A DNA stretch of 64,000 nt. Source: a virus. Its lineage: Duplodnaviria > Caudoviricetes. Position numbers and translations under genes: made by a program. This document shows positions 3,925 through 48,608 of this stretch, piece by piece. The stretch is taken from positions 3,409 to 67,408 of IMG/VR virus record IMGVR_UViG_3300021387_000104, one strand, 5' to 3'. Below the pieces are notes generated by a model. It ran no database searches, was not told the origin of the DNA, and saw nothing but the letters and a program-made list of their open reading frames with translations. The first letter of the stretch is position 1. Each line of letters opens with the position of its first letter.

Positions 3925-4302
3925 ATGTGGATTAAGACGAACCCAAACCCGCGGAAAAAGGAAGTTAATGATTGCGTCATCCGCGCCATTGCAATAGCTA
4001 CCGGCATGTCGTGGCTGGACGTGTACGACGACCTGTACCGCGTAGGGCGCAGTGAATACGACATGATGAGCAGCAATGCGGTATGGGGCTTGTACCTGTA
4101 TCAGTGCGGGTTTGAACCGTTCCTTCTTCCGGAATCCTGCCCGAGGTGCATTACCGTGCGCGAGTTTGCCAGACGGTTTCCGCACGGACGGTACATTGTC
4201 GGAACAGGCACACATGCGATTGCCGTAATTTCCGGCGATTATTACGACTCTTGGGATAGCGGAAGCACCGTTCCATCCTATTTCTGGAGAATCAGCGACT
4301 AA
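3925..4302 (+). CDS. Conserved phage protein, possible papain-fold peptidase
   Basis: NPNP...DCVIRAIA (Cys), HAIAV (His) and YYDSWDS (Asp). Confidence 0.6.
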   Translation: MWIKTNPNPRKKEVNDCVIRAIAIATGMSWLDVYDDLYRVGRSEYDMMSSNAVWGLYLYQCGFEPFLLPESCPRCITVREFARRFPHGRYIVGTGTHAIAVISGDYYDSWDSGSTVPSYFWRISD

Positions 4303-4319
4303 AAACGGAGGAAACAAAA

Positions 4320-4826
4320 ATGCCTAACTACAACAACTTCCAGTCCGGCTATGGCTACCCGATGTACAACACACAGGGCTATCAGCAGTATTCCGGTGCA
4401 CAGCCACAGTATCAGCAACAGCCTTCCATGAGTTACCAGACACAGCAGACGCCCGTTGGAATCGTCTGGGTAGACGGTGAGGTCGGTGCGAAGGCGTATC
4501 AGTTGCCTGCGAATTGGCCCGTCAATGCGCCGATGCCGCTTTGGGACACCAACGACACGGTGATTTATCTCAAATCCACAAACCAGATGGGTATGCCAAA
4601 CCCGCTTCAAAAAGTGCATTACACCATGGAAGAGGTTCAGCGTTCACCGATGATGGGGCAGTCTGGACAGACGCAGGCGCTTCCAGCACCGGAACAGGCG
4701 ATGCCTGATATGTCGGCTTTTGTGACTAAGGATGATCTTGAACAGATGAAAGAGGAACTGAAATCCGCTCTGGCGACCGCTAACGAGGCAAAGGGGGCGC
4801 GTTCAAATGGCAAATCCTCTGTTTAA
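4320..4826 (+). CDS. Gln/Tyr/Pro-rich hypothetical protein
   Basis: GGAGG RBS; low-complexity N-terminus, then IVWVDGEVGAKAY core. Confidence 0.7.
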   Translation: MPNYNNFQSGYGYPMYNTQGYQQYSGAQPQYQQQPSMSYQTQQTPVGIVWVDGEVGAKAYQLPANWPVNAPMPLWDTNDTVIYLKSTNQMGMPNPLQKVHYTMEEVQRSPMMGQSGQTQALPAPEQAMPDMSAFVTKDDLEQMKEELKSALATANEAKGARSNGKSSV

Positions 4827-5121
4827 CGCTATTATGCGCGGTTCTAAGCCGCCTGTTGCTCAACCGTCACAGGATTACGAGCAGAACAACGGAAACGCTC
4901 AGAGCGCAAATAACGCGCCGCAAATGGGCTTTCAGGACGCAATGCGTGAACTGCGTTCTCATCCGGCACAAATGATAAAACAGGCTGGATTTAACGTGCC
5001 TGATGAAATCGCAAACAATCCGCAGGCATCAGTCATGCACCTGATCCAGTCTGGGCAGGTAGGTGGACCGATGATGCAACGGATCAGACCGATGCTGAAC
5101 ATGCTGATGGGGAGAAGGTAA
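4807..5121 (+). CDS. Gln/Met-rich hypothetical protein
   Basis: ORF overlaps the previous stop; MANPLF start. Confidence 0.65.
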   Translation: MANPLFNAIMRGSKPPVAQPSQDYEQNNGNAQSANNAPQMGFQDAMRELRSHPAQMIKQAGFNVPDEIANNPQASVMHLIQSGQVGGPMMQRIRPMLNMLMGRR

Positions 5122-7317: not shown

Positions 7318-8745
7318 TTACCAAGTGTATTCTGAAATGGTCTTTTCAAGCGTTCCTTCACCTTGCTCTGCCAGACGGATGAAATCAAACACCTTTTCAG
7401 ACCATCCTGCTATGATGTTTGTCTTTGGTCCGTGGAACTGCTGTGTACCATAGCCTTGCAGGTCGATAGCGTGTACCCAGATGTCGTTGCCAGACTTCCT
7501 GCGGTATTGGTCTGCAAGCGATTGTACAGGGGAACTCCATCCACAATTGCACTGATTGTCTGAAATAATGATGATTCGGTCAGCATCTACGCGGTCAGCC
7601 AGCATTTTTTCAAACGGAAGACCCATTGCTGTGCCACCACTGGCGCGCGCTTCATGGACGGTCGTGTGCAGTATGCCGTTTCTGGAAGATATTGGTTGCT
7701 TACTGATGCTGTTGTTGAATGTATAGAAAATGCTGTTATCGCACATCTTGTTCGCGATCAGTCCGAGTAACATACCGATTTCACAGCACTGAATATCAGA
7801 TTTGCTGCTTATAAGACCACTCATCGAACCTGATACATCAACGGCGATTACGGTAGTGCCAGACAGACGCGGCATGTTTTCAATAGATGCTTCTACGGCG
7901 CTTTCAAGAGCGTCATACACGCGGCTGCCGGCGGAGGCAGGGAGATTCTTATAAGCGGAGAGAAAGCGGAACGGAAGCTGCTTGGACTTGTGTACGGCAA
8001 CGGGATCTTCAATGCGGTTAAGCACTTTTTCAATGTTGTCTGGCTTTGCTTCAATGATGTTTCTCAGGTTTCTGAGTAGCGCCATATATCCGACCTTGCC
8101 GCTATTGATAAGTCCCTCCCATGTCTTCTTGTTGTTGCCGTTCTTTGAAAGTTCAGTTTCCCATGTCAGCGGGGTTTCAAGCGTTCCTTCAAGACAACGC
8201 TTCCACATTGCTTCCTGTTCTGCGTCCTTCGGCTTCGGCCTGCACAGGCACAGCAAATCGCGCATTTTTACGCCTTTGCCATCACCCTTATACTTGGCAA
8301 GGGTATATTCATCGAACGTCTTAAGCACGTCGCAAATGCCGTTTCTGACAGAGTTGGGAATGGGCTTGCCGAACGTGTTCAAATAAAAAGACATAATTTC
8401 CGTCACGTCATCGCCGCGCAACGATACGCCACGGATGGTCTCACGCGCGTGTGGCTTGCCTTCAGGCTCATGCGCAAGAAAACCGGTCAGCACGTGCGCA
8501 ACAGAACGCATGTTGAACTCCCTGCGGGCGAACACGGCCAACTTGGAAACAAACTGTGGGTCGGTTTTGATAACGCGCTGGATGGTTTCTGTCATTTCCT
8601 TGCTGTTATCACCGTAGAACTTGCTTTCGTTGAAAAAGCTCGTAAGGACTTGCGTAATAAGCTTTTCCTTGTCATTCATACGGTAAGCGACGTGACCTTC
8701 CTTGTTGGTCGTCTTGATAGTAGCGGTGTTGTTGAACTTTGCCAT
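7318..8745 (-). CDS. rsr: Ro60/TROVE RNA-binding protein with C-terminal vWA domain
   Basis: TROVE motifs (SFFNESKFYG, ARREFNMRS, TWETELS, GYMALLRNLRNI, QLPFRFLSAY), vWA MIDAS DVSGSM and IIIISDNQ; AAAAGGAGGT RBS. Confidence 0.93.
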   Translation of the reverse strand: MAKFNNTATIKTTNKEGHVAYRMNDKEKLITQVLTSFFNESKFYGDNSKEMTETIQRVIKTDPQFVSKLAVFARREFNMRSVAHVLTGFLAHEPEGKPHARETIRGVSLRGDDVTEIMSFYLNTFGKPIPNSVRNGICDVLKTFDEYTLAKYKGDGKGVKMRDLLCLCRPKPKDAEQEAMWKRCLEGTLETPLTWETELSKNGNNKKTWEGLINSGKVGYMALLRNLRNIIEAKPDNIEKVLNRIEDPVAVHKSKQLPFRFLSAYKNLPASAGSRVYDALESAVEASIENMPRLSGTTVIAVDVSGSMSGLISSKSDIQCCEIGMLLGLIANKMCDNSIFYTFNNSISKQPISSRNGILHTTVHEARASGGTAMGLPFEKMLADRVDADRIIIISDNQCNCGWSSPVQSLADQYRRKSGNDIWVHAIDLQGYGTQQFHGPKTNIIAGWSEKVFDFIRLAEQGEGTLEKTISEYTW

Positions 8746-8780
8746 GCAGTACCTCCTTTTACGGTGGACAAAATAAAAAA

Positions 8781-8860
8781 CAAACGCGATAAATCCGCAA
8801 CCGGGTAAGCCAGTGTCGAATTACAAGTTCGATGCATCCGATTACTGCAATGCGCGTTTG
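8781..8860 (-). ncRNA. Array unit E: short stem-closed RNA with the shared CAUUGC/UUUAU motif, no T arm
   Basis: Minus strand: CAAACGCG-CATTGC-A...TTTAT-CGCGTTTG; internal hairpin TCGAA-CTTGTAA-TTCGA. Confidence 0.6.
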
Positions 8861-8870
8861 TCTTTGGTGT

Positions 8871-9018
8871 GAAGCGGATAAAAACGGAAACGGTACGTTT
8901 AGCGCTCTGCCGATTGAGCTACTACGATTACTCATAAAGAGCCACACTCGTAGACGGGGCTCGAACCCGCAACCTCTCGCTTAACAGGCGAAGTAACCTT
9001 TTCCTACAATGCCGCTTC
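8871..9018 (-). ncRNA. Array unit A: circularly permuted tRNA-Asn(GTT)-like RNA (Y RNA/YrlA-like candidate)
   Basis: Minus strand: GAAGCGG-CATTGT...GGTTAC-TTCGC CTGTTAA GCGAG-AGGTT-GCGGG TTCGAGC CCCGT-CTACGA-linker-TCGTAG-TA-GCTC AATCGGCA GAGC...TTTAT-CCGCTTC. Confidence 0.8.
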
Positions 9019-9026
9019 AGTGGCGT

Positions 9027-9163
9027 GATGCTGATAAATTCGATAACAGTACATTTACGGTGTGCTACCATTACACCATCCCACACATATGGGCGTGGGA
9101 GCAGGAATCGAACCTACACTACCGGCACCATAGCGAAGTAACTGTCATCTGCAATGCAGCATC
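9027..9163 (-). ncRNA. Array unit B: circularly permuted tRNA-like RNA
   Basis: Minus strand: GATGCTG-CATTGC...GTTACTTCG...GTAGG TTCGATT CCTGC-TCCCAC-loop-GTGGGA-TG-GTGT AATGGTA GCAC...TTTAT-CAGCATC. Confidence 0.8.
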
Positions 9164-9170
9164 ATTGGCA

Positions 9171-9281
9171 CGGTGCGGATAAAACTTGATTCTGTAAATG
9201 CCAACCATGGCTAAAGACGGAATCGAACCGGCAGTTCGTAAATATGCACACGAAGTAACAGAATCATGCAATGCCACACCG
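9171..9281 (-). ncRNA. Array unit C: reduced unit with T arm only
   Basis: Minus strand: CGGTGTGG-CATTGC-A-TGATTCTG-TTACTTCG...CCGG TTCGATT CCG...CAGAATCA...TTTAT-CCGCACCG. Confidence 0.72.
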
Positions 9282-9283
9282 AA

Positions 9284-9330
9284 CTCTCCCGACAGGGTTT
9301 GAACCTGTGACATTCTGCTTAACAGTCAGG
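9284..9330 (-). pseudogene. 3' half of tRNA-Asn(GTT); left inversion junction
   Basis: Minus strand: CCTGA CTGTTAA GCAGA ATGTC ACAGG TTCAAAC CCTGT CGGGAGA G; no D arm upstream in this orientation. Confidence 0.8.
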
Positions 9331-9470
9331 TGAAAAACCTGAATTTTACAGCGTTTTCAAGCACTATGTTATAAACATGTTATAAACCGGAATACAGTTT
9401 TATCAACACAAATAGTCTTATTACACTGGCTTTGATGACATATTATTGACACAATTGATATATGAACGGG

Positions 9471-9499
9471 TTGCAAAACAAACAAAAGCAGTGTATTAT
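9471..9499 (+). promoter_or_regulatory. Sigma-A promoter inside the putative invertible segment
   Basis: TTGCAA-17 nt-TATTAT with TG before the -10; followed by hairpin CGTGTTCA-CT-TGAACACG. Confidence 0.7.
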
Positions 9500-9521
9500 A
9501 TATGCGTGTTCACTTGAACAC

Positions 9522-9657
9522 GAACGGCATTGCAGGTAACGGTTACTTCAAGCCAGATTTGTGTCAATGGTTCGATTCCATTCCCAGTCCTACGGGCTGG
9601 CGTAGCTCAGATGGTAGAGCAAAATCACGAAAACACCGTTGCCAAATTTATCCGTTT
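9522..9657 (+). ncRNA. Array unit D: circularly permuted tRNA-like RNA (plus strand in this orientation)
   Basis: GAACGG-CATTGC-A-GGTAACGGT-TACTTC...AATGG TTCGATT CCATT-CCCAGTCC TACG GGCTGG-CG-TA-GCTC AGATGGTA GAGC...ACCGTTGCC-AAATTTAT-CCGTTT. Confidence 0.8.
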
Positions 9658-9663
9658 GTCTTA

Positions 9664-9754
9664 TGCGTGGGTTCATGACACGGCCCGTCTGATCAACGGA
9701 GCACGCCATGACAATGAGGCTAACATTGTGAAGGGTAGCCACCTTCCCCACGCA
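9664..9754 (+). ncRNA. Four-way-junction RNA candidate with complementary loops
   Basis: Closing stem TGCGTGGG/CCCACGCA and three internal arms; loop segments GGCTA (9718-9722) and TAGCC (9736-9740) are complementary. Confidence 0.55.
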
Positions 9755-9760
9755 GGTTAT

Positions 9761-9836
9761 TCTCCTGTAGCTCAGTCGGTAGAGCGTCTGCCTGTTAATC
9801 AGGGTGTCCCGGGTTCGAGTCCCTGATGGCGCACCA
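9761..9836 (+). pseudogene. Chimeric 76-nt tRNA: Asn(GTT) 5' half joined to an unrelated 3' half; right inversion junction and att core
   Basis: Canonical D arm, T loop and CCA, but the acceptor TCTCCTG/ATGGCGC pairs at only 3 of 7 positions and the anticodon stem TCTGC/TCAGG is imperfect. Confidence 0.8.
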
Positions 9837-9840
9837 CATG

Positions 9841-9884
9841 AAAGCCCCGAAAGTTTCGAGAGATTCAGAACTTTCGGGGTTTTT
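9841..9884. terminator. Hairpin terminator downstream of the att core and integrase
   Basis: AAA-GCCCCGAAAGTT...AACTTTCGGGGT-TTTT. Confidence 0.75.
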
Positions 9885-9996
9885 CCTGTTATAAACGGGT
9901 TCTTCAATAATTCTCTGAAATTCCCTCTGGTTTATAACACGGTTTATAACATTAGATTACGGGTTTTTTGGCGAAATCTACGACACTATTCTGACA

Positions 9997-11061
9997 CTAT
10001 TTGATCTGGTCGGTAATCGCCTTTAGGTCGGATAAGGTAGAAGACTGATAGTGCTTCTTGGTGGTCTCGTAACTGGCGTGGCCCATCAGTTCGGCCTTGT
10101 CTTTGTCCGCCCCGACGAGTTTTTTAATTTTATTGGAATAGGTGTGTCTGGTGGCATATGGTACTTTGCCAACGATGCCGAGCTTGTCCATCATGGGATG
10201 CCAGATGAATTTGTTAAAGTACCTGGTAGGCATGACGGAATAAGTGCCGGTGGGTTTGCCTTTCCGGTCAAGGTCGATGCGCGGGAAAAGCAAATCCGTA
10301 CCATCAATCGCAAGGCAACGCTCGATAATCGGCTGCACACTGGATGGAATGGGAACTATACGGGTTTTTCCGGCCTCGGTCTTGATGCCGCCAGCAATGT
10401 AGTGTACGCTGTTTTCGGTATAGTAGTCAGACTTTTTGAAATTGAAAAACTCAGTTGGGCGATGACCAAGGTAGCATAAGGCGACTACATAATCAGCATA
10501 AGGAAGTCCTGATTCGGAGATACGTTTCAGTTCTTCCTCGCTTAGTGGTTCGTAATGTGTGGTCTCCTCATCGCCGGTGTAGAGGTTCGCGGCATTGTTC
10601 TTATAGATTTGGTCATCGTCGATGGCGTATTTGAAAACCAGTCCGGCAGTGACCTTCATCAAATCTTTTGTGCGTCTTCCTTTAGAGCAATTATCTATAC
10701 AGTTTTGCAAGTCAACCGCGCTGATCATGTCGATCTTCGTATAATGCAGTGGTTTGAAATGAATATTAAACACAGATGCATAGCCTTCCATGGTCTTTGC
10801 AGACACACGGTCAGCATATGACGCAGACCAACTTTTGAAGTTGTCAAGGAACGTCTTTGGTGGATGTTTGACGCGCTTTTTTTCAATGAGATCAGATAGA
10901 TAGTTCATCGCGTCTTTTTTCTTTTCAAAGCCGCCCTTGGTCTTCCAAACCGGCTTCAAACCAGCTTTGTTATCGGCAGGCTCATAGTGATCCACAACGC
11001 GTGCCGTCCAGGTGTTTCCGCGTTTATAGACGTTCCCTGTGCCGTTGGGGCGTTTGGACAT
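9997..11061 (-). CDS. int: Tyrosine integrase
   Basis: N-terminal arm-binding-like KRPNGTGNVYKR; catalytic GHRPTE (R), KTEAG (K), YATRHTY, LMGH and HY; AAGGAG RBS. Confidence 0.93.
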   Translation of the reverse strand: MSKRPNGTGNVYKRGNTWTARVVDHYEPADNKAGLKPVWKTKGGFEKKKDAMNYLSDLIEKKRVKHPPKTFLDNFKSWSASYADRVSAKTMEGYASVFNIHFKPLHYTKIDMISAVDLQNCIDNCSKGRRTKDLMKVTAGLVFKYAIDDDQIYKNNAANLYTGDEETTHYEPLSEEELKRISESGLPYADYVVALCYLGHRPTEFFNFKKSDYYTENSVHYIAGGIKTEAGKTRIVPIPSSVQPIIERCLAIDGTDLLFPRIDLDRKGKPTGTYSVMPTRYFNKFIWHPMMDKLGIVGKVPYATRHTYSNKIKKLVGADKDKAELMGHASYETTKKHYQSSTLSDLKAITDQIK

Positions 11062-11066
11062 ATCAT

Positions 11067-11711
11067 TCACTCCTTAAACATTCGCGTGAAGCCGACCGGC
11101 TTGCCTAAGATGCGAACGATGTTGTACTCGTCGAATGGCATAAACATAGGCTGATATGATGGATTGTCACTAACCAGCAACAGACCGTTATTCTGGCGAT
11201 AGACGTGTTTGAGCGTCGCGCTGTCGTCGAGCAATACGACAAGCACTTGTCCGTCATAGTCGATGGTATCTTGTGCGCGGATGAATACCACATCGCCGTC
11301 AAGAAAGTTGGGGCTCATGCTGTCACCGCTGATGCGGAGGGCGTAGTCTGCTTTGCACGGGCAGTCGATATAAGCATCATAACTCTCCTCGGCCAGGATC
11401 GGAGTGCCGGCGGCGACGGAGCCGATAAGGGGAACTTTGCTGAATGAGTCGGGGTTGATTTCCTTTAAACCGTTTGGCAAGCTGGTTTTATTCCATCCCA
11501 AGACAGCGGGAACATCAAGCGACAGCACTTTACATATTTTGACGATACTATCGAGAGAGAATTTTTGAGTTTTCCCTGTGACCCATCGATTAATAGACGA
11601 CTTGGCAACGCCTGTCTTTTCGCCAAGTTGCTCATAAGTAATTCCTTCAGAGGTCATGGCTTCAAGTATCCGTTGCCTTATGACCGGGGCTAATACTTCA
11701 TAATTATCCAT
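11067..11711 (-). CDS. cI: CI-like repressor (HTH plus S24 autoproteolytic domain)
   Basis: XRE HTH; VPLIGSVAAG cleavage region; GDSM (Ser) and TLKH (Lys). Confidence 0.92.
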   Translation of the reverse strand: MDNYEVLAPVIRQRILEAMTSEGITYEQLGEKTGVAKSSINRWVTGKTQKFSLDSIVKICKVLSLDVPAVLGWNKTSLPNGLKEINPDSFSKVPLIGSVAAGTPILAEESYDAYIDCPCKADYALRISGDSMSPNFLDGDVVFIRAQDTIDYDGQVLVVLLDDSATLKHVYRQNNGLLLVSDNPSYQPMFMPFDEYNIVRILGKPVGFTRMFKE

Positions 11712-11736
11712 AGAAACGACCTCCTTTTCAAAAAAT

Positions 11737-11852
11737 ATTATAATGTAGGAATCCCAATAATGCAATACTAAATCAAAAATTTTTGAAATTTTATCCCAAA
11801 AAGGGGTTGACAAGTTATTTCGCTTGTGTTAAGATTATCCCAGTTCCGGGAC
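11737..11852. promoter_or_regulatory. Divergent cI/cro promoters with three operator-like palindromes
   Basis: Rightward TTGACA(11807)-17-TAAGAT; leftward TTGCAT-17-TATAAT (11765 to 11737). ATCCCA-N4-TGGGAT variants at 11751, 11793 and 11837; a perfect copy at 12081. Confidence 0.8.
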
Positions 11853-14400: not shown

Positions 14401-14640
14401 ATGACATTCAGCGAAATTGAGAGTTCTGAAAAAGACTTTCTCACTCCTTCCGATGTAGCGCCAATTATGGGTTGTATGCCGTACAGCCTGAACGTGCAAG
14501 CCAAGGAGGATATCACGAAACTTGGGTTCCCTGCGTCGCTGGTCGGCACAAGGTTACTGATCCCACGCCTTGGCTTCATCCGGTGGGTGAAATACGGGAA
14601 CGCTCCGTTAGGAGAAAGGGAGGAAGAATATGGACGCTGA
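14401..14640 (+). CDS. Excisionase-like winged-helix protein
   Basis: FLTPSDVAPIMGC...LVGTRLLIPRLGFIRW. Confidence 0.65.
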   Translation: MTFSEIESSEKDFLTPSDVAPIMGCMPYSLNVQAKEDITKLGFPASLVGTRLLIPRLGFIRWVKYGNAPLGEREEEYGR

Positions 14641-48514: not shown

Positions 48515-48608
48515 AACAACTTTGGCGGATAGATCGACGGGTCGAAAAGTGGAGTGCCTTGCCACCTGCCGCCAATTAAAAAAGGCAAACCTATTAGGAG
48601 GCAATAGG

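Follow-up and report, generated by a model that had tools for sequence, protein, structure and literature searches.

A natural 466-bp inversion between a tRNA-Asn anticodon loop and the attP core of a rumen phage, probably made by the phage's own integrase

Introduction

The DNA studied here is a 64,000-nucleotide stretch (the window) of a Caudoviricetes phage, comprising bases 3409-67408 of the 67,408-bp IMG/VR record IMGVR_UViG_3300021387_000104. The record has direct terminal repeats and is rated complete; the source DNA is therefore a free phage genome, not a prophage. This DNA occurs in metagenomic runs from the gut or rumen of sheep, goats and bovines. Between a gene for a Ro60 homologue and the gene for a tyrosine integrase (Int), a 7-nt anticodon loop sequence occurs twice in opposite orientations. 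An earlier note, made from the sequence alone, had proposed that the segment between the two copies is an inversion switch, the flipping of which rebuilds a tRNA-Asn gene and the attachment site of the phage (attP) and turns a promoter towards the Ro60 operon. This locus raises the questions of whether the inversion is real, what made it, and whether it serves as a switch.

We confirmed that a 466-bp inversion is real, that its breakpoints are the anticodon loop of tRNA-Asn and the core of attP, and that flipping it back rebuilds both. We estimate a probability of roughly 70% that it is a self-inversion made by Int, of the type described for phage HK022, and that it is a rare accident fixed in one lineage, not a designed switch.

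Results

The two sites and the tRNA-Asn gene

The letters at both sites read as the earlier note had stated. Site 1 consists of TCTGC (9314-9318), TTAACAG (9319-9325) and TCAGG (9326-9330), and site 2 of TCTGC (9787-9791), CTGTTAA (9792-9798) and TCAGG (9799-9803). The sole part that the two sites (9314-9330 and 9787-9803) have in common in inverted orientation is the anticodon loop CTGTTAA, a sequence present in four copies in the 64 kb. A third loop of this sequence (8981-8987, minus strand) lies in a YrlA-like unit (8871-9000), with 4/5 stem pairs and in the same orientation as that of tRNA-Asn. Int could potentially use this loop, too, as a secondary site, and recombination at it would invert about 0.8 kb.

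ARAGORN found no tRNA in the 64 kb as assembled. The Rfam tRNA model scored 34 bits on 9761-9833 (plus strand), where neither the acceptor stem nor the anticodon stem pairs. This stretch is chimeric: its 5' acceptor strand has no partner nearby on the same strand, and its 3' half ends in a discriminator A and CCA. Only after 9326-9791 had been flipped in silico did ARAGORN call a 75-nt tRNA-Asn(gtt), which RNAfold folded into a clean cloverleaf (-24.4 kcal/mol). The combination of paired acceptor, D, anticodon and T stems with the anticodon GTT was present in the flipped form only, in agreement with the predicted tRNA-Asn(GTT) with fully paired stems. The 5' half was completed by the CTGTTAA copy ending at 9325 (minus strand) alone, with 5/5 anticodon-stem and 7/7 acceptor pairs; the other three copies gave at most 4/5 and 5/7, respectively. 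When IMG/VR was scanned for exact patterns, neither the rebuilt tRNA-Asn junction nor the 3' part of tRNA-Asn had a match. No tRNA-Asn with the D-arm and loop pattern of the phage was found in five candidate host metagenome-assembled genomes (MAGs), which are incomplete and allow nothing firm to be said.

The phage attachment site

All five copies in the 64 kb of the 9-mer GTTTATAAC, a putative arm-type site of Int, lie within 9368-9950, against approximately 0.5 expected by chance. In the flipped window they stand at -69, -58, +131 and +143 from TCAGG, with a reversed site at +89. The intact attP of locus L002, whose Int is 71% identical, has its arm sites at exactly the same four offsets. 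There, two arm sites precede a core that contains the same tRNA 3' part, and a terminator and a further pair of arm sites come after it. In the window as assembled, only the P' sites are in place, and the P sites are 420-431 bp away and reversed. The agreement with L002 is the strongest comparative evidence, suggesting that the flipped form is the functional and ancestral one.

Two features of an attP used by a heterobivalent, tRNA-targeting integrase, an adjacent Int with an arm-binding domain and a core made of the host tRNA 3' part, were present as assembled, and arm sites on both sides were present only after the flip. The claim that flipping rebuilds an attP with arm sites on both sides was thus upheld, whereas the core had been described as perfect and is not: it places a Lys-type stem around an Asn-type loop and is one base off the host sequence. 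A terminator hairpin follows the core; the terminator scan missed it (9845-9884), its loop being longer than 8 nt. A scan of Joint Genome Institute (JGI) metagenome contigs for the P-arm/core junction yielded no match.

The arm-site consensus of L002 (GTTAATAAC) and that of the window (GTTTATAAC) are one base apart. Relative to int, the attP module is oriented in L002 and L129 opposite to that in the window and in L128, with identical inner spacing (L002 6070-6293 compared with window 9730-9950, flipped). In L002 and L129, there is no tRNA near attP.

The host site

A 29-nt pattern taken from the attP 3' part matched more than 120 bacterial contigs, nearly all of Clostridia (Acutalibacteraceae, Oscillospiraceae, Ruminococcus) and many from ruminants. 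In 101 of these contigs, the match was the 3' part of a tRNA with the anticodon loop CTCTTAA, i.e., tRNA-Lys(CTT). Several of the tRNA-Lys(CTT) genes, including one from a sheep-rumen MAG, were identical to the window 3' part through CCA. When the pattern was allowed C or G at position 34, it matched 188 of 401 genomes of the class, with the C form in all 150 matches listed. The attP loop of L002 also reads CTCTTAA. The rebuilt attP shares 52 nt of identity with the host tRNA-Lys, interrupted by a single mismatch, G for C at position 34. Judging from these matches, the natural bacterial attachment site (attB) is most readily seen as tRNA-Lys(CTT) of rumen Clostridia, with the loop CTCTTAA. Of the proposal that Int used the phage tRNA as attB, the part concerning tRNA-Asn as an inverted secondary site was retained, and a role as the natural attB was not, given the matches in Clostridia.

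At seven bacterial loci, the tRNA-Lys 3' part (six CTT, one TTT) was preceded by unrelated DNA starting at the loop, which indicates that integrated elements cross over there. The tRNA-Lys loop is a hot spot of integration for several unrelated elements in Clostridia. The loci lie on bacterial genome contigs (L021, L025, L045, L048, L070, L101 and L102), and no close Int homologue occurred within the 8-kb stretches examined. Across about 100 genomes of Clostridia (L008-L127), a C-U mismatch (CCGGG...CCCTG) is conserved in the T stem of tRNA-Lys(CTT). Since the host genes have it as well, the mismatch is not a defect of the phage copy.

Both orientations in assemblies

Logan contigs of four runs were compared with window positions 8300-10800. 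The evidence on orientation consists of contigs, and contigs drop rare variants. In the source run X1, a 3,309-nt contig spanned 8300-9797 without mismatch, and the left junction is therefore real. The contig break at 9797-9807 is explained by 31-mers common to very abundant bacterial tRNAs (depth >2,000). In an ENA scaffold of the source sample, the sequence runs from 10163 down to 3318 at 100% identity and spans both junctions. Checked in this way, the inverted arrangement proved not to be a misassembly. In the source-sample contigs (X1, X2), the other orientation was looked for and not found, which should not be read as evidence of its absence, as contigs cannot show rare variants.

The uninverted form was present in two other samples, in phages 95-99% alike to the window phage. 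In X5, which is bovine and belongs to another study, contig record 26 (407 nt, depth 34.5) joined 9791 (plus strand) to 9325 (minus strand) and carried the intact tRNA-Asn. The shorter side of the joint measured 125 nt, and seven letters fitted both sides. A second contig of the same run (record 27) ran from 9535 down to 9315, and its next 12 letters equal 9803-9814 in reverse complement, which restores the intact attP core. In X3, another sample of the source study, record 19 carried the rebuilt attP junction, record 18 left the window just past 9325, at 9330, and there was a loose end behind 9802. The uninverted form, which the earlier note had expected in related phages, does occur. In all three samples, one orientation per sample was recovered.

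X5 records 27 and 30 overlap by exactly 30 nt, starting where identity with the host tRNA-Lys begins. The overlap equals k-1 at the Logan k of 31. A branch at that point requires the whole 30-mer to be shared with the host tRNA, which implies that the X5 attP would carry the host loop, CTCTTAA.

RNA units and the Ro60 gene

The tRNA-like and YrlA-like units between the Ro60 gene and the left breakpoint gave Rfam scores below gathering (YrlA, 28 bits at 8871-9000; tRNA, 27 bits at 8946-9010); across the region, the YrlA scores were 17-34 bits compared with a gathering score of 69. Positions 9089-9160 resemble the YrlA unit of the Ro60 relatives L005 and L007, in the same orientation relative to Ro60. 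In L004, L005 and L007, every YrlA-like or tRNA-like unit is co-oriented with Ro60. In the window, one unit (D, 9536-9645) is the sole one off the Ro60 strand, opposite to its homologue in L005 and L007 relative to Ro60, which indicates that the assembled state is derived. That the flip re-aims unit D towards Ro60 was correct: it is then oriented as its homologue is and co-oriented with Ro60. The three relatives (70% amino acid identity; positions 4050-4830) have arrays upstream of Ro60 in which two YrlA-like units are accompanied by a true tRNA-Lys(TTT) and by tRNA-Asn-like units, with every unit on one strand.

The promoter proposed at 9471-9499 fared less well. It is a weak match to the consensus (9/12) and no better than those in shuffled sequence, with four promoter-like sites in the region and 2.4 expected.

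Coordinates of all features are collected in Table 1.

Table 1. Features of the inverted locus and its surroundings, with window coordinates of the assembled form.
Feature	Position	Strand	Basis
Ro60 (Rsr) homologue, downstream end of the RNA array	7318-8745	-	Pfam TROVE 4.5e-32, vWA_Ro60 1.1e-10
tRNA-like/YrlA-like RNA units, co-oriented with Ro60	8871-9283	-	Rfam, both below gathering; similarity to L005/L007
tRNA-Asn 3' part (anticodon-stem 3' strand, variable loop, T arm, acceptor 3' strand, G73)	9284-9318	-	Pairing with 9761-9791; ARAGORN after flip
Overlap copy 1 (CTGTTAA), left breakpoint	9319-9325	-	Sequence; X5 joint 9325/9791 with seven letters fitting both sides
Inverted 466-bp cassette	9326-9791		X5 record 26 joins 9791(+) to 9325(-); second ancestral junction present in X5 record 27 and in X3 record 19
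attP left core, 7 nt matching host tRNA-Lys just 5' of the anticodon loop	9326-9332	-	Rebuilt attP aligned with tRNA-Lys of L009
Two putative P-arm arm-type sites (GTTTATAAC on minus strand)	9368-9387	-	-69, -58 after flip, as in L002
Candidate sigma-70-type promoter	9471-9499	+	TTGCAA-17-TATTAT, 9/12 consensus
YrlA-like Y RNA (unit D), strand opposite Ro60 as assembled	9536-9645	+	Rfam YrlA 33.7 bits, E 6.8e-05, below gathering
tRNA-Asn 5' part (acceptor 5' strand, D arm, anticodon-stem 5' strand)	9761-9791	+	Sequence, Rfam, ARAGORN after flip, pairing
Overlap copy 2 (CTGTTAA), right breakpoint	9792-9798	+	Sequence
attP right core: host-type tRNA-Lys(CTT) 3' part through CCA	9799-9836	+	Exact match to L008, L009, L012 (rumen/gut Clostridia); 91.5% identical to L002 attP
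Terminator hairpin and T5 after the tRNA-Lys 3' part	9845-9884	+	Read from sequence; L002 equivalent at same place
Putative P' arm: reversed arm-type site 9888-9896; direct sites 9930-9938, 9942-9950	9888-9950	+	+89 (reversed), +131, +143; L002 has +131, +143
Tyrosine integrase (Int), arm-binding N-terminal domain	9997-11070	-	Pfam and structure alignment
CI-like repressor	11067-11813	-	Pfam Peptidase_S24 1.7e-24 and HTH_3

Integrase and neighbouring genes

Int scored 26.8 bits for Phage_integrase, 22.6 for Phage_int_SAM_3 and 19.5 for Arm-DNA-bind_4, all at or just under the Pfam cut-offs. Its alignment with 4a8e, a XerC-like recombinase, has an E of 7e-07 and covers the motifs R, K, R-H, G-H and Y (catalytic Tyr). 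The phage is considered temperate because it encodes a CI-like repressor. Locus searches with Int recovered only relatives of 71-74% identity and one 99.7% fragment (L130) that ends inside the loop, and no other record with the exact Int protein was found. The GenBank phage records in INPHARED held nothing beyond generic tRNA similarity to the region.

In the ENA scaffold of the same sample and in an AUXO01 contig, window position 10163, inside int at about codon 303, is fused to 2.3 kb of DNA (L131:1-2305; L130:1-752) that is absent from the phage record. The foreign piece encodes a TauE exporter, HTH proteins, DUF6442 and an N-terminal resolvase fragment. The join keeps just the last 55 codons of int, and the scaffold (69,661 nt) corresponds to the foreign piece plus about one phage genome. 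The join may stem from an int-disrupting insertion or variant, or may be chimeric. A match to the Rfam int-alpA model (46 bits, above gathering) was observed at 48522-48586 (plus strand), with a Mu-F-like head gene on one side and the major capsid gene on the other. It was rejected as an excision element, lying in the head-gene module at 48.5 kb, far from any integrase or AlpA gene.

Discussion

Proposed origin of the inversion

In the normal form of the phage, the cassette (P-arm sites, candidate promoter, YrlA-like RNA and a small RNA), tRNA-Asn(GTT), further RNA units and Ro60 would follow one another on one strand. Beside int would lie attP, with two arm sites, then the anticodon arm and entire 3' part of host tRNA-Lys(CTT) as its core, then the terminator and three arm sites. 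We hypothesize that the heterobivalent Int took the anticodon arm of tRNA-Asn, inverted and about 470 bp away, as a secondary attB; the arms of tRNA-Asn and tRNA-Lys are identical at 13 of 17 positions. Strand exchange inside the 7-nt loop would have inverted the 466 bp between the sites. The products would resemble attL and attR: a dead Asn/Lys chimeric tRNA (9761-9836), and the P arm joined to the tRNA-Asn 3' part (9284-9390). A crossover within the 7-nt loops of two arms alike at 13/17 positions, one of them the attP core, is taken as the signature of the phage's own Int acting on an internal inverted secondary site. As in self-inversion of the HK022 type, the breakpoints are the attP overlap and an inverted attB-like site, and the uninverted parent form exists.

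The parental loops would have been one base apart (C34 in attP, G34 in tRNA-Asn), so that both recombinant overlaps would be heteroduplexes. The two junctions being inverted on one molecule, each daughter would carry, after replication, the overlap of one parent at both of them. Both junctions do carry the Asn-type loop, as this model predicts. A C/G position outside the exchanged region would have left C at the P-arm junction, which does not have it. Alternatively, attP of the direct ancestor may already have had G at position 34 (CTGTTAA).

With attP split, integration into tRNA-Lys should fail, and the phage tRNA-Asn would be lost in the inverted state. The candidate promoter and unit D would now read towards the Lys 3' part and the terminator, away from the other units and Ro60. 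The inversion probably impairs both lysogeny and expression of the Ro60 operon. In principle it is reversible by Int and a directionality factor, and a flip back would be expected to restore the tRNA yet leave attP one base off the host site.

Several points weigh against an accidental self-inversion by Int. The dependence on Int is deduced from the geometry of the sites. An overlap mismatch normally blocks tyrosine recombinases; the event therefore needs a rare tolerated exchange, or an ancestral attP that already read CTGTTAA. The loop base of the X5 attP was deduced from contig ends and not read directly. The inverted phage, at about 15x depth and with a complete genome with terminal repeats, is not obviously crippled. 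Single samples could also contain a minority of the other orientation, and this would speak for an active switch. The candidate promoter and its effect on Ro60 are sequence-based predictions and unproven.

Alternative explanations

The best-surviving alternative, which we regard as improbable, is a programmed reversible switch. Int alone would produce a state resembling attL/attR, in which attP is divided and the Ro60 operon is cut off from its promoter, and Int with a directionality factor would reverse it, so that integration would be tied to the RNA module. Both orientations exist in nature in closely similar phages, and the inverted phage is abundant and complete. The two junctions now have an identical 7-nt overlap, making further flips mismatch-free, and the cassette contains a promoter-like site as well as a Y RNA that is turned by the flip. 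Against this stand the single orientation per sample (as far as contigs tell) and the loss of both the tRNA gene and attP in one state, whereas known switches have two functional states. The flip back gives an attP that does not match the host attB, the Int relatives L002 and L129 lack an attP close to an inverted tRNA, and the RNA arrays of L004, L005 and L007 are unidirectional, so the layout is not conserved. The protein encoded at 14401-14640, which the earlier note had put forward as the excisionase (Xis), had no match in Pfam or PHROG, its neighbours matched no excisionase there, and no Xis was identified with these databases. In the HK022 precedent, the inversion is a harmful side reaction. 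The proposed coupling of integration to the RNA module through a reversible switch thus found no support in the contigs of the samples, which drop rare variants. Since the inverted state destroys the tRNA and attP, an HK022-like accident fits better than a two-state device, and the switch, unproven, is less likely than a fixed accidental self-inversion.

Two-state bet-hedging, with a lysogeny-competent, Ro60-on form and a lytic-only, Ro60-off form flipped back by some directionality factor, is improbable to about the same degree. If it were true, the converted, identical overlap would be an adaptation that makes flips efficient.

It is very unlikely that the inversion arose independently of Int, with two anticodon loops serving by chance as the 7-bp inverted repeat for illegitimate recombination or for template switching in replication. 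Short inverted repeats are able to mediate rare inversions, and the link between Int and the event does not come from evidence on the enzyme. However, the attP breakpoint is the very loop at which host tRNA-Lys identity begins, in L002 and in the seven integrated elements as well. Its partner is the equivalent loop of another, similar tRNA arm, and with CTGTTAA present only four times in 64 kb, a chance pairing of the two is very unlikely.

An assembly artefact or chimeric contig can be practically dismissed: although this is a metagenome assembly and contigs break at about 9797-9807 where bacterial tRNAs share 31-mers, the shared repeat of 7 bp is far below the assembler k, and the junctions were recovered without mismatch in the 3.3-kb Logan contig (left) and by another pipeline in the ENA scaffold (both).

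Implications

If Int made the inversion, this would be a natural case of a temperate phage Int attacking its own genome, with parent and product forms both recovered from the environment. It would reveal a hidden cost of phage tRNA genes where attB is a tRNA anticodon arm, as a tRNA that the phage itself encodes can then be a decoy for attB. An Int that crosses a one-base overlap mismatch in nature and converts the overlap would supply raw material for changes in att-site specificity. A single step would rewire a small-RNA/Ro60 operon and abolish integration, and could make a temperate rumen phage lytic-only. For annotation, a tRNA or attP that seems to be missing from a metagenomic phage may be split by an inversion. 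If flipping were frequent and reversible, it would represent a new kind of lysogeny control.

Comparison with known systems

Overlap conversion recalls the saf mutants of phage lambda. In lambda secondary-site integration, mismatched overlaps reportedly give heteroduplexes, from which progeny gain the overlap of the partner and an altered site preference. The present phage differs in that the partner lies within the phage genome and the result is an inversion, not insertion and excision. Inverted HK022 is said to be viable but poor at lysogeny.

Short promoter or gene cassettes are also flipped by site-specific recombinases in fimS (FimB/E), the invertible promoters of Bacteroides, the R64 shufflon and the Mu G segment (Gin). 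These switches are marked by matched inverted repeats, by an invertase of their own, by two states that both function and by populations that mix them, none of which was seen at the present locus, where one state is destructive. In Thermococcales, the integrase Int-pTN3 drives chromosomal inversions between inverted tRNA genes (PMC5495485). Both there and here, a tRNA-targeting tyrosine integrase would invert DNA between two inverted tRNA-derived sites. The Int-pTN3 inversions concern megabase segments of archaeal chromosomes, an SSV-type integrase and a partly homology-driven process, in contrast to a phage genome, a heterobivalent Int and a 7-nt crossover.

Temperate phages that have their own tRNA gene and integrate in a host tRNA gene are known from tRNA-dependent lysogeny (Guerrero-Bustamante and Hatfull 2024, PMC10865867). 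In those phages, the host tRNA is not restored by attP and is complemented by a phage tRNA of its isotype. This arrangement was ruled out here, where the complete 3' part of tRNA-Lys is contained in attP and the phage encodes a tRNA-Asn. Bacteria and phages with Ro60 encode tRNA-mimicking YrlA Y RNAs (Chen et al. 2014, PMC4201824); the cassette and its neighbours, YrlA-like and located beside a Ro60 gene, resemble these systems, a likeness that serves as context only given the Rfam scores below gathering.

The closest parallel is HK022. According to the summary of Dorgai et al. 1993 given in PMC5495485, HK022 Int, where Xis and Fis do not prevent this, inverts the segment bounded by attP and a secondary site that lies in the left operon of the phage itself. 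As far as that summary goes, the two cases share a lambda-type Int, recombination of attP with an internal inverted pseudo-att site, inversion, and attL/attR-like hybrids. Unlike in HK022, the secondary site here would be a phage tRNA gene of another isoacceptor, which is destroyed, and the segment measures only 466 bp. The overlaps would have been one base apart and converted, and the event was found in nature by metagenomics, not in Xis or Fis mutants. By this analogy, the inversion is best viewed as a variant of the Int self-inversion known from HK022.

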